Of a stretch of DNA of 32,000 nt, positions 2,389-30,431 are shown piece by piece. The translations under genes and the position numbers were made by a program. How positions within the stretch are numbered: position 1 is the stretch's first letter; every line of letters begins with the position of its first letter. The notes below the pieces were generated by a model. It was given only the letters and a program-made list of their open reading frames with translations, had not been told where the DNA came from and made no database searches. The stretch comes from Idiomarina loihiensis L2TR (GTDB lineage: Bacteria > Pseudomonadota > Gammaproteobacteria > Enterobacterales > Alteromonadaceae): NCBI RefSeq assembly GCF_000008465.1, contig NC_006512.1, forward strand, positions 480,001 through 512,000, read 5' to 3'.

Positions 2389-5300
2389 ATGTTAGCTCGT
2401 ATTATTGAAGCCTCCATACGTAACTCGTGGATGGTGTTGCTGCTGTTCTTAGGTCTTGCATTCTGGGCCTGGCAGTCGCTGCAGCAAACCAAACTGGACG
2501 CAATACCGGACTTATCGGAAGTTCAGGTTATCGTCAAAACCAATTACCCGGGGCAAGCGCCGGCGGTAGTGGAAGAGCAGGTGACGTACCCGCTTTCGAG
2601 CGTGATGCTGTCCGTACCTAAAGCCACCTCAGTGCGCGCTTTTTCGTTCTTTGGCGACTCGTACGTTTACGTTATTTTTGAAGACGGAACCGACCCTTAC
2701 TGGGCCCGAAGCCGGGTGAACGAGTATCTGGATCAGGCACAAAGCCAGCTTCCTGACCAAGTTCGGCCGGAGTTAGGCCCCGATGCGTCCGGTATTGGCT
2801 GGGTGTATCAATACGCATTGGTTGATGAAACCAATCAGCTCAATCTGGGTGAACTAACCCGCTTGCAGAACTGGTTTTTAAAACAGGAACTGCAAAGTGT
2901 GCAGGGGGTAGCAGAAATTGCCACAGTTGGCGGCATGGTTGAAACCTACCAGGTAGTGGTGCAGCCGGAAGCTTTACATCGTTATAACCTCACCCTGAAC
3001 CAAATTAAGCAAAGCATTCAGCAGGCCAATAACGAAGTGGGCGGTTCGGTGGTTGAAATGGGTGAAGCCGAATACATGGTACGTGGCCTGGGATATCTGA
3101 AAAGCATAGAAGACATTCGCAAAATTCCCTTGCCGCTCACATCAGAGCAGCAGGGTACGGTGCTGTTGGAAGAAGTGGCGGATATTCGCATTGGACCGCA
3201 GGTACGCCGTGGCATTACCGAGCTGAATGGCGACGGTGAAGTCGTGGGCGGTATTGTGGTTATGCGCCATGGCGAAAATGCTCTACAAACCATTGCCGCA
3301 GTAAAAGATAAACTAGAAGAGCTAAAACAGGGCCTGCCCGAGGGCGTTAAAGTGGTGCCGACCTATGACCGCTCAAACCTGATCCAGGCATCGACAGATA
3401 ACCTCACCACAAAGCTGATAGAAGAAATGTTCTTTGTTGCTGTGGTGTGCATTTTGTTTCTCTGGCATGCACGCTCGGCAGTGGTGGCCATTGTCAGTTT
3501 GCCGCTGTCGGTACTGTTCGCAGTGTGGATAATGAACATGCTGGGTATCAGCGCCAACATTATGAGTCTGGGGGGAATCGCCATTGCCATTGGCGCGCTG
3601 GTGGATGCCGCCATTGTCATGATAGAGAACACCCACAAGCACCTGCAGAATTATCAGGAGCGGCACAAAATCGTGGCTAAAGGCTCGGCGCGGCTTAAAG
3701 TTGTTAATGAAGCCTGTCGCGAAGTGGGGCCTTCGCTGTTCTTCTCGCTACTGGTCATTACCGTCAGCTTTGTTCCGGTGTTTGTGCTGCAAGGCCAGCA
3801 AGGGCGTCTGTTTGAGCCTTTAGCCTATACCAAAACTCTGGCCATGGCCGCTGCCGCAATTATTGCCGTGACACTTATTCCCGTGCTGATTGCGTTGCTG
3901 GTGCGCGGGAAAATACCCGCTGAAGAAAAGAACTGGCTGTCTCGCGGTTTAATTGCGCTTTACCGACCACTGCTGGCTTTCACACTTAAGTTCCCTAAAA
4001 CCATTATTGTACTGGCTCTTTTGATCACCGCATCTGCCTGGCACCCGTATAAGCAGCTTAATTACGAGCTGATGCCGCCGCTACATGAGGGGGACCTAAT
4101 GTACATGCCTACCACACTGCCGGGCATCAGTGTTGAAAGTGCCGGTAAGCTGTTACAGCAAACCGACAAGCTCATTGCTGCGCAGCCCGAGGTTGAGCGC
4201 GTATTCGGTAAAGTTGGTCGTGCTGACACCGCCACCGATCCTGCGCCAATGACCATGATAGAAACCAGCATTACGCTGAAGCCGGAAAGCGAATGGCGTG
4301 AAGGAATGACGGTAGATGACATTATTGCTGAGCTGGATGAGCGGGTGCAGATACCCGGCGTGACTAATGCCTGGGTACAGCCCATTCGTACCCGCATTGA
4401 AATGCTTGCCACTGGTGTTAAAACCCCGTTAGCCATTAAAGTGAGCGGTAGTGATTTTCGTGAAATAGAAAAACTGGCCACCCGTATTGAAGATACGCTT
4501 TCTGAGCAGGATGCAACGGGTTCGGTCATTGCAGAGCGTTCCGGCGGAGGTCGTTATATTGAGATAGAGCCGAAATTGCGACAAGCGGCTCGTTACGGCC
4601 TGACCCAGGCCGATATCCACGAGCATATTCAGTACGCCATTGGTGGAGCGAATATTGCGACATCGGTACAGGGCAATGAGCGTTTTCCTATTAACCTGCG
4701 TTATCCGCGAGAGCAGCGCGACCATATCGAGAAGCTGAAAACCCTGCCAGTTAAATCGGCTTCCGGGCAGTGGCTGACTCTGTCCGATGTCGCCGATATA
4801 AGGGTAACTCAGGGGCCGGCCATGCTGAAAAGCGAAGATGCCCGTTTAAGCAGCTGGGTCTTTATTGAGCCGGATAAAGGCGTCACGGTTGGTGACTATA
4901 TTACCCAGGTTAGTGGCGTTATGGATAAGTTGGAAATACCGGTAGGTTACAACTGGAGCTGGACCGGGCAATATAAAGCCATGCAACAGGTGGAAAGTGA
5001 CTTAAAAGAAATCATTCCTCTGACATTGCTGGTTATTTTGTTGTTACTGTACATGACCTTCCGTTCTCTACCGCAGGCGTTACTGGTGATAGGTACCTTA
5101 CCGCTGGCATTAACCGGTAGCTTATGGCTGATTTATTTGTTGGACTACAACCTGTCACTGGCGGTTATTGTCGGCATGATAGCTCTTGCCGGTGTCGCTG
5201 CGGAATTCGGAGTGGTTATGCTGTTGTACCTGAACAACGCATGGAAAGCCGTGGCATACGACAAAAATCAGCTAAAAGCAGCAGTAGAAGAAGGCGCGTT

Positions 5301-5496: not shown

Positions 5497-5523
5497 GTAG
5501 CCTGACATTTATGTCAGGTGAGG
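5497..5523 (+). repeat. REP unit (GTAG head + 18-nt hairpin), left half of an inverted REP doublet
   Basis: GTAGCCTGACATTTATGTCAGGTGAGG. Exact reverse complement lies at 5713-5738. Starts 7 nt after the cusA stop. Confidence 0.85.
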
Positions 5524-5673
5524 TGGAAGATAGCGAGCGCTGGAGGTTGCAGGAACCATTGAGGAGGACGCCCGTAAATACATCCCTGTAGGGCTTGGGC
5601 AGCGCCATCCATGGCGCCGCACACCTCCTCAATGGTTCGCCGCAACCGTCGGGCGCGCTCACTATCTGCCACC
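5522..5673 (-). repeat. Family-A structured repeat, copy A1 (nested between two REPs); strand given is the inferred core-sense strand
   Basis: Conserved core GACGCCCGTAAATACATCCCTGTAGGGCTTGGGCAGCGCCATCCATGGCGCCGCACAC. Flanked by self-complementary arms: GGTGGAAGATAGCGAGCGC...GAACCATTGAGGAGG pairs with CCTCCTCAATGGTTC...GCGCGCTCACTATCTGCCACC. Confidence 0.9.
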
Positions 5674-5712
5674 GCACCTGACGCAAACTGCACCGAGCTT
5701 TCCGCCCGGCAT

Positions 5713-5738
5713 CTCACCTGACATAAATGTCAGGCTAC
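5713..5738 (-). repeat. REP unit, right half of inverted REP doublet
   Basis: CTCACCTGACATAAATGTCAGGCTAC is the exact reverse complement of 5497-5522. A degenerate REP-like CACCTGACGCAAACTGCACC lies at about 5675-5695. Confidence 0.85.
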
Positions 5739-11026: not shown

Positions 11027-13615
11027 GTGCTTAAAGAATATCGTCAGCACGTAGAAGAGCGCGCCGCAGAAGGCATCCCTCCGAAGCCATTAAATGCCGA
11101 GCAAGTAGCCGATTTAGTGGAATTACTGAAAAATCCCCCAGCAGGCGAGGAAGACTTCCTGGTTGAGCTGCTGGCCGAGCGTGTACCGCCGGGCGTGGAT
11201 GAAGCAGCCTATGTTAAAGCAGGCTTTTTAAGCGCCGTTGTTAAGGGCGAAATTGAAAGTCCGGTTGTGAGTAAAGAATACGCAGTGAAGCTGTTGGGCA
11301 ATATGCACGGCGGTTACAACATCGTCACTTTGGTGGAATTGCTGGACGACTCTCAGCTGGCTGAACTGGCGGCAAAAGAACTGAAAGAAACCATCTTAAT
11401 GTTCGACGCTTTCCACGACGTGGAAGAGAAAATGAAAGCCGGTAATGCGCTGGCGAAAGAAGTGGTTGAATCCTGGGCCAATGCTGAATGGTTTACCAAC
11501 AGCGACGAGCTGGCTAAGTCCATTAAAGCAACTGTCTTTAAAGTGACTGGCGAAACCAATACCGATGATCTGTCTCCGGCACCAGATGCATGGTCTCGTC
11601 CGGACATTCCTTTGCATGCTAAAGCGATGTACAAAATGCCACGCGAAGGCATTACCGATGCGGGCAAGCAGATTGAAGAATTAAAAGAAAAAGGTCACCC
11701 GGTTGCCTTCGTTGGCGACGTAGTGGGTACCGGTTCTTCACGGAAATCAGCGACCAACTCGGTATTGTGGAACATCGGCGAAGACATGCCGGGCACACCG
11801 AACAAACGTGCCGGCGGTATCTGCATCGGTTCTAAAGTTGCGCCTATTTTCTTCAATACCATGAAAGACGCAGGTGCGTTGGTGTTTGAAGCCGACGTTG
11901 AAAAAATGAACATGGGCGATGTCATCACTATCTACCCATACGAAGGCAAAATCGAGAACGAAGCCGGCGAAATTATCGCTGAATACGATTATGCGTCCCG
12001 CGTCATTCTGGATGAAGTCCGTGCCGGTGGCCGTATTAACCTGATCATTGGTCGTGGCCTGACAGAAAAAGCACGTGAATCTCTGGGCATGGGTCCATCA
12101 GACTTATTCCGTAAGCCAGAGCAACCGGCAGACAGCGGTAAAGGTTTCTCGCTGGCGCAGAAGTTGGTCGGTAAAGCTTGTGGTATGGAAGGTGTTCGTC
12201 CGGGCGCTTATTGCGAACCTAAGATGACCACTGTCGGCTCTCAGGACACTACCGGTCCTATGACTCGTGACGAACTAAAAGACCTGGCATGCCTTGGTTT
12301 TAACTCAGACTTAGTTATGCAGTCGTTCTGCCACACCGCCGCTTATCCTAAGCCCGTTGACGTTGAAACTCAGCACACCTTGCCTGACTTTATCATGAAC
12401 CGTGGCGGCGTAAGTTTGCGTCCTGGCGACGGTATCATCCACAGCTGGTTGAACCGTATGTTGTTGCCAGACACAGTTGGTACTGGTGGCGATTCGCACA
12501 CGCGTTTCCCGCTGGGCATTTCATTCCCGGCAGGCTCTGGTCTGGTCGCGTTCGCTGCAGCTACCGGTGTTATGCCGCTGGATATGCCTGAATCTGTATT
12601 GGTGCGCTTTAAAGGTGAAATGCAGCCGGGTATCACCCTGCGTGACTTAGTTCATGCCATTCCTGCATTCGCTATCAAAGAAGGTCACCTGACCGTTGAT
12701 AAGCGTGGCAAGAAGAACATTTTCTCAGGTCGTATCTTAGAAATTGAAGGTCTTGATCACTTAACCGTTGAGCAGGCATTTGAATTGTCTGATGCTTCTG
12801 CTGAGCGTTCTGCTGCCGGTTGTACCATCGATTTGTCTGAAGAGTCGGTTGCCGAGTACCTGCGTTCAAACATCACTATGCTGCGTTGGATGATCAACGA
12901 AGGCTACGGCGATGCGCGTACGTTGGAGCGTCGTGCCCGTAAGATGGAAGAATGGTTAGAGAACCCGCAGCTAACGCGTGCCGACAAAGATGCCGACTAT
13001 TCTACGGTTATCGAAATTGACCTGAACGACATTAAAGAGCCTATCGTTTGCTGCCCGAACGACCCGGACGACGCGAAGTTCCTGAGCGAAGTTTCAGGTA
13101 ATAACGTTGATGAAGTCTTCATTGGTTCGTGCATGACCAACATTGGTCACTTCCGTGCGGCGGGTAAATTGTTAGAGAAAAACTCTGACCCATTAAATAC
13201 CCGTTTGTGGATTGCACCACCAACGAAAATGGACAAAGCGCAGCTGGAAGTTGAAGGGTATTACGACATTTATGAGCGTAATGGCGTTCGTACCGAAATG
13301 CCGGGTTGTTCACTGTGTATGGGTAACCAGGCACGGGTAGAACCGGGCGCAACGGTGCTGTCTACCTCAACCCGTAACTTCCCGAACCGTTTGGGTGATG
13401 GCGCTAACGTTTACCTGACTTCTGCAGAGCTTGCCGCTGTCGGTGCAATTGTTGGTCGTCTGCCAACACCGGAAGAATACCTGGAGTACGCACAGGACAT
13501 CAACTCAATGGCTGGCGAAGTCTATAAATACCTGAACTTCGACCAGATGGATGCCTTCCGCGACGCAGAAAAAGCGGCCAAGGAAAACATCATCCCAACC
13601 ATCAACGTGGCTTAA
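11027..13615 (+). CDS. acnB: Aconitate hydratase B / 2-methylisocitrate dehydratase
   Basis: 862 aa with a GTG start. Collinear with E. coli AcnB from MLxEYRxH to the end. Conserved blocks [48 protein letters not shown] and [11 protein letters not shown]. Confidence 0.95.
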
Positions 13616-13744
13616 TGAGTGCTTAGGTTGCAAGGACTCTTTACGAGGACGCCCGCAAGTACTTCCCTGTAGGGCTTGGGCAGCGCCATCCATGGCGCTG
13701 CACACCTCGTTAAGAGTCCTCGCAACCGTTGATCGCACTCATTA
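13613..13744 (-). repeat. Family-A structured repeat, copy A2; its first bases are the acnB stop codon
   Basis: Same core as A1 (GACGCCCGCAAGTACTTCCCTGTAGGGCTTGGGCAGCGCCATCCATGGCGCTGCACAC). Different but self-complementary arms: TAATGAGTGC/GCACTCATTA and AGGACTCTTTACGAGG/CCTCGTTAAGAGTCCT. Confidence 0.9.
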
Positions 13745-13754
13745 GCAATTTATA

Positions 13755-13777
13755 AAACCGCTTCGGCGGTTTTTTTG
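13755..13777 (+). terminator. Rho-independent terminator downstream of acnB and A2
   Basis: AAAACCGC-TTCG-GCGGTTTT stem-loop followed by a T-run (13770-13776). Confidence 0.75.
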
Positions 13778-13790
13778 TGTCCGATATTCA

Positions 13791-13816
13791 GTAGCCTGAT
13801 GTTCACATCAGGTGGG
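13791..13816 (+). repeat. Solitary REP unit
   Basis: GTAGCCTGATGTTCACATCAGGTGGG: GTAG head plus an 18-nt hairpin (CCTGATG-TTCA-CATCAGG). Confidence 0.8.
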
Positions 13817-13865
13817 ATACTGTCTCTTAGTGAGGAAAAAGAAAGATTAGCGCGTGCGTAAGAAA

Positions 13866-14027
13866 GGGGCAGGTTCTTCACTTATGAGCGTTATGAGTGT
13901 TGAGTACTTCTGTGGCGGAGTGTCGAAGGCCATGGAAGGCCTTCGTCAAGCCCTCATGGATGAGCTCGTAGCGTCTCCGTCACAGAAGTACTCAATGCTC
14001 AAGCGAAATAAGTGAAGAACCTGCCCC
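13866..14027 (+). repeat. Family-C structured repeat, copy C1 (about 162-nt long hairpin with a conserved core)
   Basis: GGGGCAGGTTCTTCACTT...AAGTGAAGAACCTGCCCC outer 18-bp stem. Inner stem of about 26 bp (3 G-T). Core GGAG-TGT-CGAAGGCC-ATGGAA-GGCCTTCG-TCAAGCCCT-CATGGATGAGCTCGTA-GCGTCTCC. Confidence 0.9.
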
Positions 14028-17511: not shown

Positions 17512-18444
17512 ATGAAAGTAGCCGTATTAGGTGCGGCCGGTGGTATCGGCCAGGCATTGTCATTACTTCTGAAAACCCAATTACCAGCAGGTTCAGAATT
17601 ATCGTTGTATGACGTTGCGCCAGTAGTTCCAGGTGTGGCGGTTGACTTAAGTCATATCCCTACCGACGTAAAAGTAACAGGCTTCGGTAAAGACGACTTA
17701 GCATCAGCATTAGTTGGCAGCGACATCGTATTGATTCCTGCCGGCGTACCACGTAAGCCGGGTATGGATCGCTCTGACCTGTTCAACATGAACGCCGGCA
17801 TCGTTAAAAACCTAGTGCAAGGCGTTGCAGACAACTGCCCTAACGCCTGTGTTGGCATCATTACTAACCCAGTAAACACCACGGTTCCAATCGCTGCCGA
17901 AGTCCTGAAAAAAGCAGGCTGCTACGATAAGCGTAAACTGTTCGGTGTTACTACGCTGGACGTTATCCGTTCAGAAGCCTTTGTTGGTGAGTTGCGTGGT
18001 CTGAACCCGGAAAACGTTAATGTACCAGTTATCGGTGGGCATAGCGGCACAACCATTTTGCCATTGCTGTCTCAGGTTGAAGGCGTTGAGTTTACAGAGC
18101 AAGAAATCAAAGACTTAACTCACCGTATCCAGAATGCCGGTACTGAAGTTGTCGAAGCCAAAGCTGGCGGCGGTTCAGCAACCCTTTCTATGGGTCAGGC
18201 AGCAGCACGCTTTGCCTTGTCACTGCTGAAAGGCCTGCAAGGTCAGGACACTATCGAGTGCACCTACGTAGAAGGCCCGGGCGACAATGCTAAGTTCTTC
18301 GCGCAGCCAGTACGCTTAGGCAAAAACGGCGCCGAAGAAATCCTGTCTTACGGCAAGCTAAGTGCATTCGAACAAAAATGCATGGACGAAATGCTAGACG
18401 GCCTGAAAGGCGACATCCAAACTGGCATCGACTTCGCCAGCTAA
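17512..18444 (+). CDS. mdh: Malate dehydrogenase
   Basis: 310 aa. [16 protein letters not shown] Rossmann motif, [24 protein letters not shown]. Collinear with E. coli Mdh. Confidence 0.95.
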
Positions 18445-18650
18445 GCTTTCAGCAATCCGCTCTTGAAAATATTGGGGCGGGCCAGCATTGGCTGGCCATT
18501 GCAGGTTATCTTCCGAAAGACGCCTGCAAGTACGTCCCTGTAAGGCTTGGGCAGCGCCATCCTTGGCGCTGCACACTTTCTCCAGATAACCCACAATGGC
18601 GTATCGCCAATACTGACCACCCCCAATACTTCCACGCTATTTGCTGAAAG
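18445..18650 (-). repeat. Family-A structured repeat, copy A3 (divergent, longer arms); begins at the base after the mdh stop
   Basis: Core GACGCCTGCAAGTACGTCCCTGTAAGGCTTGGGCAGCGCCATCCTTGGCGCTGCACAC. Arms are unrelated in sequence to A1/A2/A4 but self-complementary: CTTTCAGCAA/TTGCTGAAAG, ATTGGGG/CCCCAAT, GGTTATCT/AGATAACC. Confidence 0.85.
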
Positions 18651-18654
18651 TTAT

Positions 18655-18663: not shown

Positions 18664-18748
18664 TGAGATGGTCCCCTCCCTCCTAAGCGGCATCGCAATG
18701 TGCCAATATAGAGGTTCAAGCTTCTATAGAACAGAGTGGAGAGGACCA

Positions 18749-19780
18749 ATGGCTATTGTAAACAGAATTGCCCTGGATTTGGCAAAGGATTTTATTCAGG
18801 TTTTGGCGCTGGATGAAAATGAGCAGGAAGTTTTTAATAAAAAACTGCGCAGCAATAAAGTGTTAGCGAAGCTGGCGACGCTGAGCCGTACGGATGACTG
18901 TGAAGTAGCGGTTGAGTCCTGCGGCATGAGTCATTACTGGCGCCGCGAATGTGAAAAGCTGGGTTATAAAACGGTGGCGTTGCCACCGCGTTTCGTCAAA
19001 GCGTACCTGCAGGGTGAGAAGAACGATGCGAATGACGCCCGGGCAATAGCCGAGGCGGCATCACGACCCAACCGTCAGACGGTCAGGCTGAAAAGCATTG
19101 AGCAGCAGGACTTAGCATTGATGGTCAATCAGCGGGAAGGCTTCGTGCAGACGAGAACGCAGTTCTCGAATAGGTTGCGGGGGCAACTGGCCGAATACGG
19201 CATTCTTTTACCGAAGCGAGTCGGTACGATATTACAGAGAGTACCGGAGGTACTGGAAGACGACAGCAATGCGCTGACGCTTCAGTCACGGGACCTCATC
19301 AACCGGCTCTATCAGATGCTGCGAGCGGTGGATGAAGAAGTTAAAGCGCTGGATAAGCACTTAGCGACACAGGCCGAAAGGAATGAAGACAGTCAGCGGC
19401 TGATGACCCTGCCGGGTATCGGACCGATAACAGCGACCTCGCTGCTGGCACTGATAGGTGATGTGAGTGAATTTAAACGCGGCCGCAACCTGTCGGAATA
19501 CCTGGGACTGGTACCACGGCAAAACAGCAGTGGCGGTAAAGACCGTTTAGGCGGTATTACCAAAAAAGGGAACACCAAACTCAGGACACTGCTGGTGCAT
19601 GGCGCCCGCTCGGCACTGCGGGTGGCACAACAGCGCCACGACAGGCTGAGCCTCTGGGCACAGGATGTCGCTAAACGCAGAGGCAACAACGTTGCAGCGG
19701 TGGCACTGGCTAACAAGCACGCCCGGATAATCTGGGCGATGTTAAAGAATAAAGAAGATTACCGGATGACTGCTGCTTAA
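18749..19780 (+). CDS. IS110-family (DEDD/RuvC-like + Tnp domain) transposase/recombinase
   Basis: Start at MAIVNRIALDLAKDF, with a GGAGAGG SD 5 nt upstream. The ORF-track start at 18668 reads through the terminal IR and is unlikely. Motifs: ALDLAK, VESCGMSHYW, KNDANDARAIAEA, LPGIGPITATSLLALIGD, VPRQNSSGGKDRLGGITKKGN. Confidence 0.9.
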   Translation: MAIVNRIALDLAKDFIQVLALDENEQEVFNKKLRSNKVLAKLATLSRTDDCEVAVESCGMSHYWRRECEKLGYKTVALPPRFVKAYLQGEKNDANDARAIAEAASRPNRQTVRLKSIEQQDLALMVNQREGFVQTRTQFSNRLRGQLAEYGILLPKRVGTILQRVPEVLEDDSNALTLQSRDLINRLYQMLRAVDEEVKALDKHLATQAERNEDSQRLMTLPGIGPITATSLLALIGDVSEFKRGRNLSEYLGLVPRQNSSGGKDRLGGITKKGNTKLRTLLVHGARSALRVAQQRHDRLSLWAQDVAKRRGNNVAAVALANKHARIIWAMLKNKEDYRMTAA

Positions 19781-20045
19781 CAGCATTCAGTAAAAGAGCA
19801 CAGCGAAGGTTCATTCCTTCCGGGAGTTGCAAACGTCAACAGGATGGTAAAATAGGGTAAACCGACGACAACTGAGACTGTTGAACGTCCGTACATAAAG
19901 TACGTTAGCCTGATAAGCCAGTTGTCGTGCGGAGTTCATCCAGGCCAGGTGCGCAAAGCGCGCACCATAAACAGGCCGTATATATGCGAGCGCCCCGACA
20001 TTTACCACGAGTTGCCGTTGCAAAACGGGAGGGGACCATATATGA
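19781..20045 (+). ncRNA. Candidate bridge/seek guide RNA region in the IS 3' non-coding end (target-binding module at 19862-19932)
   Basis: Stem 19862-19874/19919-19932 encloses an internal loop and hairpin 19890-19904. Loop side 1, TGAACGTC (19882-19889), is the reverse complement of the right flank GACGTTCA (20044-20051). Loop side 2, TAGCCTGAT (19906-19914), is identical to the left flank (18656-18664). Transcript ends and the donor-binding module are not resolved. Confidence 0.5.
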
Positions 20046-20046: not shown

Positions 20047-20100
20047 GTTCACGTCAGGAGTTATCTTTGGACTTTCCACCTGATGTGAATATCAGGCTAC
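20046..20100. repeat. Right fragment of the split REP plus its intact inverted partner REP (REP doublet)
   Basis: CGTTCACGTCAGG (20046-20058) ... CACCTGATGTGAATATCAGGCTAC (20077-20100), which is the reverse complement of GTAGCCTGATATTCACATCAGGTG. Confidence 0.8.
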
Positions 20101-20111
20101 GAAAATGGTTG

Positions 20112-20275
20112 GAGGGCAGGTTGCTCACTTGTGAGCGTTACGAGTGTTGATAGCTTCTGTAGCGGAGTGTCGAAGGCCAGGGATGGCCTTCGTCAAGCCC
20201 TCATGGATGAGCTCGTAGCGTCTCCGCTACAGAAGCTATCAATGCTCAAGCGAAACAAGTGAGCAATCTGCCCTC
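20112..20275 (+). repeat. Family-C structured repeat, copy C2
   Basis: Same architecture as C1, with compensatory arm changes: GGTTGCTCACTT/AAGTGAGCAATC and GATAGCTTCTGTAGCGGAG/CTCCGCTACAGAAGCTATC. Hairpin loop is AGGGAT. Confidence 0.9.
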
Positions 20276-20276
20276 T

Positions 20277-20337
20277 CCCAAGCCCTACAGGGAAGTACTT
20301 GGGGGCGTCCTCCGAAACAGAACCCGCTCCCCCAAGG
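20277..20337 (+). repeat. Partial family-A copy (core 3' half + one arm), opposite orientation to A1-A5, fused to the end of C2
   Basis: CCCAAGCCCTACAGGGAAGTACTTGGGGGCGTCCTCC... equals the reverse complement of the A core from GGGCTTGGG leftwards. Ends 7 nt before the ispB stop. Confidence 0.8.
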
Positions 20338-21834: not shown

Positions 21835-22092
21835 ATGGCACATAAAAAGGCTGGTGGTTCTACTAAAAACGGTCGCGACTCAGAGAGTAAACGTCTCGGT
21901 GTTAAGCGCTTCGGTGGTGAGTCTGTGTTAGCAGGCAACATCCTGGTTCGTCAACGTGGTACTAAGTTCCACGCTGGTGCGAACGTTGGTATTGGTAAAG
22001 ACCACACATTGTTTGCAACCTCAGAAGGCAAAGTGTCTTTTGATGTGAAGGGCAGCAAAAACCGTAAATTTGTGAGCGTTATTACTGACTAA
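21835..22092 (+). CDS. rpmA: 50S ribosomal protein L27
   Basis: [24 protein letters not shown]..., the canonical L27. AAGGAG SD. Confidence 0.97.
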
Positions 22093-22126
22093 TAATGTGA
22101 ACATAAACTGAAAAGTTTCGGTTCTG

Positions 22127-22155
22127 AAAGCCCTGCCTTACGGCGGGGCTTTTTC
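22127..22155 (+). terminator. Rho-independent terminator after rpmA
   Basis: GCCCTGCC-TTAC-GGCGGGGC stem (one G-T pair) followed by TTTTT (22150-22154). Confidence 0.75.
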
Positions 22156-22199
22156 ATATGTGCTAGAATTTTGCACAGTATTCTATAAGTGATAAGTAG

Positions 22200-23415
<1,216 letters not shown>

Positions 23416-23434
23416 GCATTAAGGATATCGCCGA

Positions 23435-26751: not shown

Positions 26752-27896
26752 TGAGTGCATTAACTTCCGTATGGAAAAAAGAGTTCCGGGACGCTATTCG
26801 TGATAAACGTTCTGTTTTAGCGGCAATGTCCTATGCGTTTTTTGGCCCTTTATTAATGGCCGTAGCCTTCTTTTTCTTAATAACCCAACTGACCGACCCA
26901 GCAGACGTTGAAATTACCATTGAAGGCAAAGAAAATGCCCCTCAACTCGTTGAATTTTTGAACGAACGTGGTGTTGTTGCTAAAGAAGGGGAGTGGGCGA
27001 AAACCGAAACGCCAATAATATTGACCTTACCGCAAAACTGGCAGGAAAGTGTGAGTAAAGCCGAACCGGTGGAGGTAACATTACGCGCCGACTGGTCCGC
27101 ACAAAAACAGCAGACCGAAATTAAGCGTGTAGAGCAGGCCGTTCAGGCATACTCCAGTCAAATAGCGGCTTACCGTCTGACTTTACGGGGTGTGGATCCG
27201 CGTGTCGTGCAACCAATACAGTTACAAAAGCAAGACTTAGCAACCCGGGGCTCAAAAGCGGCCTTGATTATGGGCAGTGTGCTGGTATTTATTATCTTGT
27301 CTGTATTCTGGTCTGGTATGAATGTGGCTATTGATATCAGTGCTGGTGAGCGTGAACGTAACTCGCTGGAATTTTTGCTGAGTCAGCCGTTAAGCACCTG
27401 GGACATTGTTACCGGTAAAGCACTGACCGCAACGACCTTTTCATTGTTCGGGGCAATACTGTCACTGGTACTCATACCCATTATATTTGCCTACGTTCCA
27501 TTACACGAAATTGGTATGAACGTGAACTTTAGTGTGGGTATGATGCTACTAATGTTTGTTTTGCTGGTACCGCTAGCTTTGTTCGCGACCGCCCTGCAAT
27601 TGTTTGTGTCCTTTCGCGCGAAAAACTTCAAAGAAGCACAAACCTACATCAGCTTCTTATTGATCATTCCCATGGCAGCGTCATTCGGTGTCGAATTTGC
27701 ACGGCTTAAAAATCCAATTCTCTACTATCTCCCGCTAACCGGTCAGCATCAGGCTTTTCTGTCACTGATACGCGGTGAGAACGTGAATGTCATGGGAACG
27801 GTCATCAGCGCAATTGCCACCCTGGCAGCCGCTCTGCTGCTCATGAAATACATAGCCCGAATGCTCAAAAGCGAAAAAATCGTCTTCGGCCTGTAG
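26751..27896 (+). CDS. ABC-2 type transporter permease (NatB-like)
   Basis: 381 aa. N-terminal TM, a large extracytoplasmic loop, then 5 C-terminal TMs. Start overlaps the ATPase stop (TAATG). Confidence 0.8.
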   Translation: MSALTSVWKKEFRDAIRDKRSVLAAMSYAFFGPLLMAVAFFFLITQLTDPADVEITIEGKENAPQLVEFLNERGVVAKEGEWAKTETPIILTLPQNWQESVSKAEPVEVTLRADWSAQKQQTEIKRVEQAVQAYSSQIAAYRLTLRGVDPRVVQPIQLQKQDLATRGSKAALIMGSVLVFIILSVFWSGMNVAIDISAGERERNSLEFLLSQPLSTWDIVTGKALTATTFSLFGAILSLVLIPIIFAYVPLHEIGMNVNFSVGMMLLMFVLLVPLALFATALQLFVSFRAKNFKEAQTYISFLLIIPMAASFGVEFARLKNPILYYLPLTGQHQAFLSLIRGENVNVMGTVISAIATLAAALLLMKYIARMLKSEKIVFGL

Positions 27897-27903
27897 CGGG
27901 GCT

Positions 27904-28040
27904 GAATAGCGAGCGCTGAGGTTACAAGGGCCATTGTGGAGGACGCCCGTAAATACATCCCTGTAGGGCTTGGGCAGCGCCATCCATGGCGCTGCACACC
28001 TCCACAATAGCCCTGTGTAACCGTCGGCGCGCTCACTATC
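27904..28040 (-). repeat. Family-A structured repeat, copy A4
   Basis: Core identical to A1 except at 1 position. Arms GAATAGCGAGCGC...GGGCCATTGTGGAGG / CCTCCACAATAGCCC...GCGCGCTCACTATC. Starts 8 nt after the permease stop. Confidence 0.9.
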
Positions 28041-28089
28041 TTCCGCTTTAGTTAAGAAGCCACTTAAGCCGTGATGAGAGAGATTAGAA

Positions 28090-28250
28090 GGGCAGGCTGT
28101 TCACTTGTGAGCGTTACGAGTGTTGAAAGCCTCTGTGGCGGAGTGTCGAAGGCCATGGATGGCCTTCGTCAAGCTCTCATGGATGAGCTCGTCGCGTCTC
28201 CGTCATAGAGGCTTTCAATGCTCAAGCGAAGCAAGTGAGCAGCCTGCCCC
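28090..28250 (+). repeat. Family-C structured repeat, copy C3
   Basis: GGGCAGGCTGTTCACTT...AAGTGAGCAGCCTGCCCC. Inner arms GAAAGCCTCTGTGGCGGAG/CTCCGTCATAGAGGCTTTC. Ends 9 nt before the stop of the minus-strand oxidoreductase gene. Confidence 0.9.
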
Positions 28251-28259
28251 TGTCCCCCC

Positions 28260-29579
28260 TCAGTCGCGTAGGCGGCCGTAGTGGTAGTAGAGCCATTGGC
28301 CGAGGCGGCGGAAGCGTGGTAATGGAAAGGGCTTTAGTTTTGACTGGTAGTACGGTAGCTCGGGCAGGTTTTTTTCCATGGCGGCTTCTGCCAGTCTTTG
28401 ACCGGCCAGGGCGGTAAAGCCAACACCGGCGCCGCAGTAACCCATGCTGGCGTAGATATTATCTTTCACTTTGCCTACTCGCGGGTAATCGTCCAGTGAC
28501 ACACTGACCCAGCCACTCCAGAAATACTCCCACTTGTTCACTTCTCGCAGTTGCGGGAAAGTCTGGTGTAATGCCTGCAGTAAGCGTTTAGCATATATCG
28601 GCTTCTCTGCGCTTTTCCCTTGAATGGCACCACGACCACCAAACAATAAGCGGTTATCGGGCAGTAAGCGGAAGTAATACTTCAGGATGCGTGTATCCAT
28701 TATGGCGTATTGAGGTGAAAGCTTAATACTCTCAACCTGTTCGTTACTCAGAGGTGGGGTGGTAATAATGCTTGAGAGTACCGGTAGCGAGCGGCTGGCA
28801 AGCTCCGGCAACAGTTTCCCTGAGGTATAGCCATTAGAACAAACCAACAGCTTACGGGCGCGTACAGAGCCTTTGGCGGTTTGCAGATACACTCCTTTGC
28901 CGCCAAGTGACACGGCCTGAGTTACCGGGCAGTGTTCAACTAATTGCGCACCAGCGGCAGTTGCCCTTCGCGCGGTAGCTGCTGCTAACAAAATGGGGTT
29001 AAGGGTAAAACAATCAGTAAAGCGTAATGCGGCATGGGCCTGTGGGCTTGAAATAAGCCCCGAGAGTTGATTTTGGGTGAGCCATTCAACGGGTTGATTA
29101 AACTTTTTAAGCTGCTCATATTGTTGTTTCAATGGTGCCACGGCGCTGTTGCGGTGCGCTATTTTCAGGTAGCCACCGTTTTGGCGCTGGCACTGCGAAG
29201 GGCAATAACGCAAAGTTTCTTCAACCAGTTGCAGTGCCTTTTGATGTTCATCGGCAATGTCTTGCGCAATGTCAGCACCAAGGCGTTCAGCCCAGGCCGA
29301 CAAGCCCAGTCGGCCGGTACTTTTCATCACAAACCCGGCATTACGCGACGAACAACCCCAGGCCAGTTGGTTGGCTTCAAAAACTGCAACAGAATGCCCA
29401 TTTTCGGCCAGAACCCGAGCCGCATTTAACCCCGTATAACCCGCACCAATAACAGCAAATTCGACTTCCTCCGGCGCATCCACACACTCCGGAAACTCGG
29501 CCTGCGTATGCTGCTGCCAATAACTAGGCTCAGGAGCATCATGAGGCCCCGGAGGCGCATTAACCAAAGGATCATACAT
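28260..29579 (-). CDS. FAD-dependent oxidoreductase (PuuB/OrdL-like, DAO family)
   Basis: Start at MYDPLVNAPP, with an AGGTGG SD upstream. The 44 further N-terminal codons in the ORF track are a read-through of repeat A5. Dinucleotide-binding motif FAVIGAGYTGLNAARVLAENG. Overall layout resembles E. coli PuuB. Confidence 0.8.
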   Translation of the reverse strand: MYDPLVNAPPGPHDAPEPSYWQQHTQAEFPECVDAPEEVEFAVIGAGYTGLNAARVLAENGHSVAVFEANQLAWGCSSRNAGFVMKSTGRLGLSAWAERLGADIAQDIADEHQKALQLVEETLRYCPSQCQRQNGGYLKIAHRNSAVAPLKQQYEQLKKFNQPVEWLTQNQLSGLISSPQAHAALRFTDCFTLNPILLAAATARRATAAGAQLVEHCPVTQAVSLGGKGVYLQTAKGSVRARKLLVCSNGYTSGKLLPELASRSLPVLSSIITTPPLSNEQVESIKLSPQYAIMDTRILKYYFRLLPDNRLLFGGRGAIQGKSAEKPIYAKRLLQALHQTFPQLREVNKWEYFWSGWVSVSLDDYPRVGKVKDNIYASMGYCGAGVGFTALAGQRLAEAAMEKNLPELPYYQSKLKPFPLPRFRRLGQWLYYHYGRLRD

Positions 29580-29608
29580 AAACACCCACCTATAAAACGG
29601 AGAGGGAA

Positions 29609-29744
29609 GACAGCGAGCGCTGAGGTTACAAGGGCTATTGTGGAGGACGCCCGTGAATACATCCGTGTAGGGCTTGGGCAGCGCCATCCATGGCGCTGCA
29701 CACCTCCACAATAGCCCTATGTAACCGTTGGCGCGCTCACTATC
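29609..29744 (-). repeat. Family-A structured repeat, copy A5 (in the leader of the oxidoreductase gene)
   Basis: Core GACGCCCGTGAATACATCCGTGTAGGGCTTGGGCAGCGCCATCCATGGCGCTGCACAC. Arms GACAGCGAGCGC...GGGCTATTGTGGAGG / CCTCCACAATAGCCC...GCGCGCTCACTATC. Confidence 0.9.
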
Positions 29745-29749
29745 TCCCG

Positions 29750-29825
29750 CCTCATGGATGAGCTCGTCGCGTCTCCGCCACAGAGGCCTTCAATGCTCAA
29801 GCGAAACAAGTGAGCAGTCTGCCCC
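29750..29825 (+). repeat. Family-C half copy C4 (3' part of core + right arms only)
   Basis: CTCATGGATGAGCTCGTCGCGTCTCCGCCACAGAGGCCTTCAATGCTCAAGCGAAACAAGTGAGCAGTCTGCCCC aligns with the right half of C1-C3. Confidence 0.85.
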
Positions 29826-29856
29826 AAGCCCATGCAACCTCAGCGCTCGCTATTCG
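29822..29856 (+). repeat. Internally deleted partial family-A copy, opposite orientation to A1-A5, fused to C4
   Basis: CCCCAAGCCC-ATGCAACCTCAGCGCTCGCTATTC. This is the CAAGCCC core motif joined directly to the reverse complement of the A outer arm (GAATAGCGAGCGCTGAGGTTGCAT). Confidence 0.75.
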
Positions 29857-29861
29857 GAGCC

Positions 29862-30431
29862 TTACGTATCGAATTTCAGCAGCATTTCGCCGGCGTTGCA
29901 GTAGCAGGTGCCGTCGCATACTGGGCAATAGTAACCGTCTTCTACTGAGGCTTTGTACCAGCGCTTTTCATGTTGCTTAATCATTTCACCGCCGCAGCGG
30001 GTGAAATATTCATAGGCGCTGTTATTGGGGCTTTGCATCCAAATGTGCGCTAAACCACCACGGCAGCCCAGTTCTTTGGCGGTTTCAATACTACGGAACA
30101 ACAGTTCTTTGCCTATGCCCAGACCGCGTGCCTTTTCTGACACCGCCGCGCATTTAAAGTAGCACAGCTTCTCGGCTGGAATTGGCCAGGCGTCTGGGGT
30201 GCAAAAATCATCGATTGGCCATTGTCCGGGCGCCAGGGTAATGCGCACGCCCAACGGGGTCTCGCCGCGCAAAGCTATCCAGTTCAACTGCACGTTACCC
30301 GCGGTTCCGCCAGCCAGATACTGCTGGAAACTGTCTTCGTTCAGGTAGTTGTCGCCATGAACTTCGTTGGCCAGATCAATAACGGCCGCCATATCGGCAG
30401 CCGTTATTTCACGATAAATAATATCGCTCAT
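29862..30431 (-). CDS. GNAT-family N-acetyltransferase with a C-terminal Cys cluster
   Basis: 189 aa. Acetyl-CoA binding-type block (VSEKARGLGIGKELL). C-terminal YYCPVCDGTCYC. The start ATG overlaps the ahcY stop (TAATG). Confidence 0.75.
   Translation of the reverse strand: MSDIIYREITAADMAAVIDLANEVHGDNYLNEDSFQQYLAGGTAGNVQLNWIALRGETPLGVRITLAPGQWPIDDFCTPDAWPIPAEKLCYFKCAAVSEKARGLGIGKELLFRSIETAKELGCRGGLAHIWMQSPNNSAYEYFTRCGGEMIKQHEKRWYKASVEDGYYCPVCDGTCYCNAGEMLLKFDT

Follow-up and report, generated by a model that had tools for sequence, protein, structure and literature searches.

The window analyzed here is a stretch of 32,000 nucleotides (nt) of Idiomarina loihiensis L2TR (GCF_000008465.1, NC_006512.1, positions 480,001 to 512,000, forward strand), and the element under study, A3, is a 207-nt imperfect palindrome at 18445-18651, directly 3' of the stop codon of the malate dehydrogenase gene (mdh). 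A3 belongs to a family of intergenic hairpin repeats that occurs in many copies throughout the genus Idiomarina. In this family, mismatches in the stems are strongly biased toward G·U on one strand. The bias is due to selection on that strand, not to mutation bias or replication strand. The explanation that we prefer, with a probability of roughly 0.55, is that the repeats are multi-copy structured RNAs of the TwoAYGGAY class, which resemble miniature inverted-repeat transposable elements (MITEs), are selected on one strand, and probably display CsrA/RsmA sites, as predicted from the DNA sequence.

One-strand selection on a palindromic repeat

Each copy consists of a long stem (P1) of 35 to 90 bp, whose sequence is highly variable yet paired, and a conserved apex of about 56 nt that contains two small hairpins and the short conserved linkers GUGU, CAAG, and GCGUC. 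The strand reading GUGU-hairpin-CAAG-hairpin-GCGUC is called the core-sense strand here; it is the minus strand in family A and the plus strand in family C. Being asymmetric, the apex gives the element a polarity, with the core-sense strand showing CANGGANG in both loops. The conserved center of A3 is common to four other plus-oriented family A copies (cores at 5593, 13674, 27968, and 29672) and is found in reverse complement in three family C copies (cores at 13920, 20167, and 28143). A relaxed core pattern occurs eight times in the window and not once in 100 shuffles. The full-length copies and their parts are as follows, with the favored strand after the coordinates.

18445-18651, minus: A3, full hairpin element; the mdh stop codon (TAA) is at 18442-18444, and mdh was identified by Pfam
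18551-18572, minus: A3 hairpin 1, stem GCAGCGCC/GGCGCUGC, minus-strand loop AAGGAU (CAAGGAUG)
18522-18546, minus: A3 hairpin 2, minus strand GCCUUACAGGGACGUACUUGCAGGC, with ACAGGGA in the loop
5528-5667, minus: A1, full family A copy between two inverted repetitive extragenic palindromic (REP) hairpins (5497-5525 and 5710-5738)
13613-13744, minus: A2, full family A copy whose arm takes in the aconitase B stop codon; a terminator lies after it at 13754-13776
27906-28039, minus: A4, full family A copy, left half of the A4-spacer-C3 doublet
28040-28089, no strand: spacer of the A4-C3 doublet; in other genomes, related spacers link an A and a C copy at a different locus
28090-28250, plus: C3, full family C copy
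29604-29748, minus: A5, full family A copy
13866-14027, plus: C1, full family C copy adjoining the 3' end of a DUF885 gene (minus strand)
20111-20276, plus: C2, full family C copy

The family was followed in loci fetched from other genomes (designated by L numbers), which cover only small parts of those genomes. An nhmmer search gave 164 core hits in about 0.7 Mb of window and fetched loci, of which 135 could be anchored; these 135 copies come from the window and 84 Idiomarina loci. An exact-pattern scan of one genome per species found the core only in Idiomarina and closely related metagenome-assembled genomes, and no homolog was found in complete Escherichia coli genomes. In a MAFFT alignment of 116 distinct cores with anchored 22-nt arms, 96.3% of the cells in paired positions are paired, compared with 66.3% in shuffles. 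Compensatory changes occur in 25 of 31 pairs, and 20 of the 21 P1 pairs within the core-proximal 22 nt have them. Covariation scores 0.768, whereas shuffles reach 0.208 and sliding the partners gives no more than 0.164. The stem of hairpin 1 covaries between families (GCAGCGCC, CGAAGGCC, GUAGCGCC, and CUGGCGCC), and so does the closing stem of hairpin 2 (UACA/UGUA, CUCA/UGAG, UUCA/UGAA, and CACA/GUG).

A sequence-only reading of the window had pointed out that the transition mismatches in the A and C stems are all G-T on the core-sense strand. Left and right arms of each copy were therefore aligned from the core outward with strand-neutral scoring, in which G·T and A·C count equally, and every mismatch that had been described was present. 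In A3, the C-A and A-C positions on the plus strand, which are G·U on the minus strand, lie in CCAGCATTGG/TCAGTATTGG (two), CCATTGCAGG/CCATTGTGGG (two), and AATATTG/AGTATTG (one). TAGCGAG/CTCACTA in A1, A4, and A5 with an extra site in A5, GGCCATT/AATAGCC in A4, GGTTGCA/CGCAACC in A1 and A2, and the site in the A1 core hairpin were reproduced, and so were the sites of family C, among them the tandem U·G/G·U in GAGTGTTGA/TCAATGCTC. Within the window the further statement that no case has the opposite sense also holds, with A·C cells confined to a conserved internal loop or to positions outside the element. When only isolated mismatches with at least two Watson-Crick pairs on either side are counted, the core-sense strand has 17 G·T, 0 A·C, and 4 transversion mismatches (17:0, two-sided binomial test, about 1.5e-5).

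The same direction prevails across the genus. Distinct contexts with at least three flanking pairs in the 135 copies give G·T:A·C counts of 70:11 (34:8 in family A and 36:3 in family C), and in the 116 distinct cores G·U fills 137 cells, compared with 17 for A·C. Each of the 17 asymmetric pair columns leans toward G·U, over 45 sequence clusters. The asymmetry is thus strong but not absolute, with A·C making up about one in seven. The core-sense strand also folds better in all eight window copies, by 6 to 24 kcal/mol. For A3, the RNA folding energies are -120.5 kcal/mol for the minus strand (z = -11.5) and -96.1 kcal/mol for the plus strand, a difference of 24.4, and those with DNA parameters are -59.7 and -53.4 kcal/mol, a difference of 6.3.

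Selection was separated from mutation in ten clusters of related copies, in which changes were scored from the cluster consensus. Among stem changes that break a Watson-Crick pair, 75 give G·U and 36 give A·C, in addition to 75 compensatory doubles. In the unpaired columns of the same alignments, substitutions of the G·U type (C>T and A>G) number 31 and the opposite transitions 50 (Fisher p = 7e-5 for 75:36 versus 31:50). Copies at orthologous loci alone give the same picture (39:23 in stems versus 21:47 at unpaired sites, p = 4e-4). Since the unpaired-site bias runs against the stem pattern, the asymmetry reflects selection and not mutation. At the mdh locus, the G·U state stands beside compensated states: L039 has U-A at a pair that is U·G in the window, and the CA of CAUUGCAGG, which is UG in the window, is fully paired in L070 and L017. 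Purifying selection on the core-sense fold would tolerate G·U and purge A·C and transversion mismatches.

A purely mutational origin, in which deamination or mismatch repair biased by replication or by neighboring transcription produces the asymmetry without selection on folding, is very improbable and already largely refuted. About 80% of copies have a polarity that correlates with the orientation of the gene beside them, which makes a transcription-linked bias conceivable, and unpaired sites are indeed strand biased, with G>A plus T>C exceeding C>T plus A>G on the core-sense strand. Yet that bias would yield A·C, not G·U, on the core-sense strand. The asymmetry goes with the element and not with the gene, as the G·U:A·C ratio is unaffected by gene context (103:18, 64:8, and 47:7, the last with both neighbors in core-sense orientation). 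Transcription-coupled deamination or mismatch repair is ruled out on these grounds, the unpaired sites being reversed and the same/same context still at 47:7. Replication-strand bias and selection against hairpins on the lagging-strand template are excluded because A and C copies lie side by side with opposite polarity within a uniformly positive GC skew. A general property of palindromes is excluded by the REP hairpins in the same DNA (eighty in the fetched loci), which are symmetric, with G·T and A·C at 5:5. The two outcomes that would have spoken against the original proposal, equal counts on both strands genome-wide and a replication-strand bias shared by all palindromes, were thus not observed, and of the two options that it named, selection or mutation on one strand, selection is supported by the stem and unpaired counts, the REP control, and the A/C polarity.

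Probable structured-RNA class and candidate ligand

At the Rfam gathering cutoffs, which are 43 bits for TwoAYGGAY (RF01731) and 70 bits for Ysr224 (RF02770), the window has no match, and 15 Idiomarina-clade loci and a Marinobacter copy have none to TwoAYGGAY. With permissive settings, the TwoAYGGAY model matches the minus (core-sense) strand of A5 (31.7 bits), A2 (28.9 bits), and A4 (28.5 bits), all below the cutoff, and matches no family C copy at E values up to 5. On the plus strand of the A copies, Ysr224 scores 21.8 to 28 bits, also below its cutoff. TwoAYGGAY RNAs were defined by a pair of terminal AYGGAY loops together with a P1 described as "often very large", and in Psychromonas the class has multi-copy members (Weinberg et al. 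2010, PMC2864571). In the Idiomarina element, a long P1 likewise closes both hairpins; family C has AUGGAU in both loops, and family A has AUGGAU in loop 1 and mostly AGGGAU in loop 2. The element is most likely a sub-threshold variant of this known but uncharacterized class.

The apex is also 82 to 86% identical over about 50 nt to sequences from Yersinia plasmids, a Yersinia phage, and a Marinobacter plasmid, which places the Idiomarina repeats as a divergent branch within a family that extends across the gamma-proteobacteria. The copy on a Yersinia similis plasmid (L085), with about 86% identity over the 50-nt apex, is a true Ysr224 match (133.9 bits) on the strand opposite to the core sense. 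On both sides of this homolog (1411-1437 and 1590-1616) stands a terminator-like hairpin, AAACCGCCTTTATGGCGGTTT, repeated in direct orientation; the repeat could be a long target duplication, and a ryfA RNA match adjoins the Ysr224 locus.

The loops are the most conserved part of the element. Two CANGGANG motifs 24 to 25 nt apart are present on the core-sense strand of 113 of the 116 distinct cores and on the other strand of none; hairpin 2 of family A reads CUACAGGGAUGU. The consensus obtained for CsrA by systematic evolution of ligands by exponential enrichment (SELEX) is RUACARGGAUGU, in which ACA and GGA are invariant and a hairpin loop holds the GGA (PMC4347634). On the basis of its motif, TwoAYGGAY was suggested in 2015 to bind CsrA (PMC4333381), and TwoAYGGAY and rsmX belong to one Rfam clan, CL00106. 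CsrA genes and GacS/GacA are present in the genus Idiomarina according to the literature; the fetched loci, which represent small portions of their genomes, contain no csrA. Two GGA loops close enough to be reached by a single dimer occur on the core-sense strand alone, which makes CsrA/RsmA the best candidate ligand of the putative core-sense RNA. Such an RNA would hold its two GGA loops on a rigid stalk, at the spacing of a CsrA/RsmA dimer.

The sequence-only reading had left the choice between RNA and single-stranded DNA hairpins. Both remain compatible with selection on one strand, and RNA is favored as the most likely selected molecule: the favored strand fits a structured-RNA model and shows two CsrA-type loops, and the two strands of A3 differ in folding energy by 24 kcal/mol under RNA parameters and by 6 under DNA parameters.

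Genomic position, turnover, and the selected molecule

Several observations weigh against the structured-RNA explanation, and expression is its weak point. In 108 of the 135 copies (80%), the gene closest to the element is found 3' of the core-sense strand and is encoded on the other strand, and an arm abuts or contains its stop codon. Because this gene is antisense to the element, its mRNA would carry the unfavored strand, and the only expression-derived related family, Ysr224, is modeled on that strand too. Promoter and terminator scans of the whole window turned up nothing beside the elements, with no sigma-70 consensus promoter adjoining any copy, and neither strand has a U-tract after the hairpin, which shows that the elements are not intrinsic terminators; none of the window copies has the form of a dedicated unit with its own promoter and intrinsic terminator. 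All Idiomarina copies score under the TwoAYGGAY gathering cutoff. The substitution spectrum at unpaired sites fits gene-sense transcription, with C>T on the nontranscribed, gene-sense strand. G·T is also the least destabilizing mismatch in single-stranded DNA, and the truncations and insertions at the apex described below suggest that the DNA hairpin also forms in vivo, with a tip that is fragile or targeted.

The first of these points would suit a function of the other strand, as a stabilizer or processing site in the 3' untranslated region of the upstream mRNA like that of ERIC, REP, or Ysr224, with G·U inherited from founder copies. The orientation places the anti-core-sense strand in the transcript of the nearest gene, in Yersinia that strand corresponds to the RNA family Ysr224 (133.9 bits in the Y. 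similis copy), and this strand is still very stable as RNA in A3 (z = -9). Many of the counted sites are shared by descent. The asymmetry nevertheless survives the collapse to distinct contexts, is also present among the changes that occurred inside clusters or between orthologous copies, and has one direction in 17 of 17 variable pair columns over 45 sequence clusters. A gene-sense stabilizer would select G·U on the gene-sense strand, the reverse of the data, and we consider this explanation distinctly improbable.

A single-stranded DNA hairpin recognized strand-specifically by a transposase, recombinase, or nuclease involved in moving or processing the element would also favor G·T on one strand. 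Strand-specific hairpins are used in this way by the bottom strands of integron attC sites, the ends of IS200/IS605 elements, and REP sequences with their RAYT proteins. The behavior of the repeats is that of a mobile element, with many copies, turnover of variants at orthologous gene ends, and nested remnants; the breakpoints in the loop of hairpin 1, the REP doublets and IS110-family element found in the apex of several copies, and the lack of a detected promoter or terminator at the window copies all fit such a molecule. In attC, the folded bottom strand is antisense to the upstream gene, as is the folded strand here. On the other side, IS200/IS605-type elements, which transpose onto the lagging-strand template, would be expected to show a replication bias, and none is seen, A and C copies being opposite side by side. 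Apart from the IS110-family gene, no candidate transposase was noted among the window's open reading frames (ORFs), six of which were searched in Pfam. The strand difference with DNA parameters is small (6.3 kcal/mol in A3), the loops fit the consensus of an RNA-binding protein and an Rfam RNA model, and the elements have neither a GTAG box nor attC R/L boxes. A DNA hairpin as the selected molecule is therefore regarded as unlikely, and a structured RNA remains the preferred explanation.

The orientation toward gene ends is regular. It holds in 68 of 83 single copies; 88 copies have a co-oriented gene on the 5' side, and only one copy lies between divergent genes. Doublets are divergent (<-X Y->) in 25 of 26 cases, and either strand of a doublet reads 5'-antisense copy-spacer-sense copy-3'. 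A transcript reading through an <-A spacer C-> doublet between convergent genes would thus run first into an antisense copy and next into a sense copy, one way in which the favored strand might be transcribed. Two different loci have similar spacers in their A-C doublets, which indicates that the composite of about 345 bp behaves as a unit. Doublets at the same locus are not simple inversions of one another, since their spacers are unrelated.

The copies form 45 sequence clusters over about 42 orthologous loci. At a single orthologous gene end the variant may differ from genome to genome, and the right arms of older copies persist as remnants beside the gene. An origin of the arms by inverted duplication of the target flank, suggested by L025, L048, and L058, was rejected. 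In L058 the apparent match to the gene end is explained by a shared arm subfamily and a truncated right arm, and in L025 and L048 an old remnant of a right arm, now providing the gene's last codons, accounts for the match equally well. Truncation has occurred independently at least six times with the end lying within the loop of hairpin 1 or just past it (GCCATGGATG|). Truncated copies and remnants in the window, and the truncations at this loop elsewhere, are listed below.

20277-20336, plus: 3' half of another family A variant, which runs from CCAAGCCC through the right arm and is without left arm and hairpin 1; full length at the same locus in L017, L039, and L075
29751-29825, plus: 3' half of a family C copy, from hairpin 2 on; full length there in L077 and L055
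29826-29855, plus: older family A right-arm remnant; full length at the locus in L016, L005, and L053
L064:1896-1918; L025:323-346 and 5229-5251; L048:4659-4685; L039:1096-1119; L031:6958-6981; L075:4489-4522: truncations at the hairpin 1 loop

Other rearrangements of the apex were also observed. In L011, L005, and L014, at orthologs of 27896-28260 and 29560-29862, REP doublets (REPINs) stand in place of the family C apex and the outer arms are left, and a family A copy in L071 has kept its arms and lost its center. A second IS110-like element, with the end TGGGATGGACACCTCGCTTTACACGGCGTCGCAATGCGCCATTAT, is inserted at the same spot, immediately after ACAGGGATGA, in the hairpin 2 loop of two different family A copies (L083:7313-7361 and L062:350-378); it appears to target this loop. 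The ortholog of A3 at L075:4185-4420 has lost the outermost 17 nt or so of P1 from both arms (compare window 18445-18470 and 18625-18651), a symmetric indel that keeps the palindrome.

A more speculative extension, which we regard as doubtful, is that the repeats are a mobile CsrA-site module, spreading as the 345-bp doublet or as single halves to colonize gene 3' ends. Any transcript entering a gene from downstream, including convergent read-through, would then gain a stalk-mounted pair of high-affinity CsrA/RsmA sites, and the dozens of dispersed copies might act as a distributed CsrA sponge or as a CsrA-dependent barrier to antisense read-through. If so, the Csr/Rsm system would be wired through repeats instead of dedicated small RNA genes, and the orphan TwoAYGGAY and Ysr224 families would acquire a function.

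Whatever the function, the wobble asymmetry tells which strand of a palindromic repeat is selected, here the TwoAYGGAY strand and not the Ysr224 strand. The two near-consensus CsrA sites in 113 of 116 cores make the 2015 proposal testable in a cultivable genus that offers natural variants. The orientation rule, the divergent doublets, and the clustering of breakpoints and insertions at the apex were not found in the literature consulted, and models of the spread and action of the repeats must explain them.

A separate REP family with a GTAG box and a 7-bp stem (GTAGCCTGAYRTNNNNAYRTCAGG) is present in the window, with two copies inverted around A1 (5497-5525 and 5710-5738) and others at 13791-13815, 20076-20100, 23360-23385, and 23394-23416. 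Immediately after A3, an IS110-family insertion sequence (IS) at 18667-20040 (ORF 18749-19780, plus strand; Pfam DEDD_Tnp_IS110 and Transposase_20) interrupts a REP hairpin between GTAGCCTGATGA and ATGACGTTCACGTCAGG. It has a noncoding 3' end of about 260 nt, and the same IS lies within a REP in L012. Between the terminator after A2 and the position of C1, L023, L039, L062, L064, and others carry a two-gene cassette with the look, judged by eye, of a toxin-antitoxin pair; it is mostly deleted in the window, where 13815-13865 is the leftover 3' end of a small gene. Upstream of the ORF at 22209-23363, the region 22084-22172 (plus strand) gives weak Rfam matches to BSnc120 (27 bits) and Phe_leader (25 bits), far below the cutoff, and contains a terminator-like hairpin with a T-run at 22135-22149; it may be a leader or attenuator.

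Comparison with known systems

The repeats have the MITE features of multiple copies, terminal inverted repeats, and turnover at orthologous sites. No consistent flanking direct repeat (target-site duplication) was found in the Idiomarina copies, and no parent autonomous element or transposase was found. REP and REPIN sequences have a GTAG box with a short hairpin of about 7 bp, which the A and C copies lack, and IS200/IS605-like orientation with replication is absent, as A and C alternate under a positive GC skew. ERIC/IRU, the Correia elements of Neisseria, and bcr1 of Bacillus are intergenic hairpin repeats that are transcribed with neighboring genes. They resemble the Idiomarina repeats as multi-copy imperfect palindromes of 130 to 210 bp at gene ends whose orientation matters; they differ in having no sequence similarity to them, and the Idiomarina apex is a conserved asymmetric two-hairpin module.

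Like attC sites, the elements are imperfect palindromes right after a stop codon, with structure kept more than stem sequence and a folded strand that is antisense to the upstream gene. Unlike attC sites, they have no R''/L''-L'/R' boxes (GTTRRRY) at their ends and a highly conserved apex sequence, and their neighbors are housekeeping and core metabolic genes (mdh, aconitase B, and RND pumps), not cassettes.

The sponge RNAs CsrB, CsrC, and RsmX/Y/Z also carry GGA in hairpin loops, and the Idiomarina loops fit both CANGGANG and the SELEX consensus; rsmX is moreover the Rfam clan-mate of TwoAYGGAY. However, each Idiomarina unit has two sites, whereas sponges have many; dozens of dispersed copies contrast with one to few dedicated genes; and no promoter or intrinsic terminator was detected. 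Ysr224, which is among the most frequently annotated small RNAs (PMC9029176), is a homologous, multi-copy element, but its Rfam model describes the strand opposite to the favored one, and the Idiomarina copies score far lower.

TwoAYGGAY is also among the closest known counterparts. The family A second loop is AGGGAU instead of AYGGAY, and doublets, position at gene 3' ends, and antisense orientation are absent from the published description. The Idiomarina element shares other features with this class: two adjacent hairpins with AYGGAY-type loops are closed by a long P1, the order of parts is the same, with a CAAG-like linker and a GCGU closure, both occur in gamma-proteobacteria and can be multi-copy (as in Psychromonas), and the TwoAYGGAY model matches the strand that the wobble asymmetry favors.

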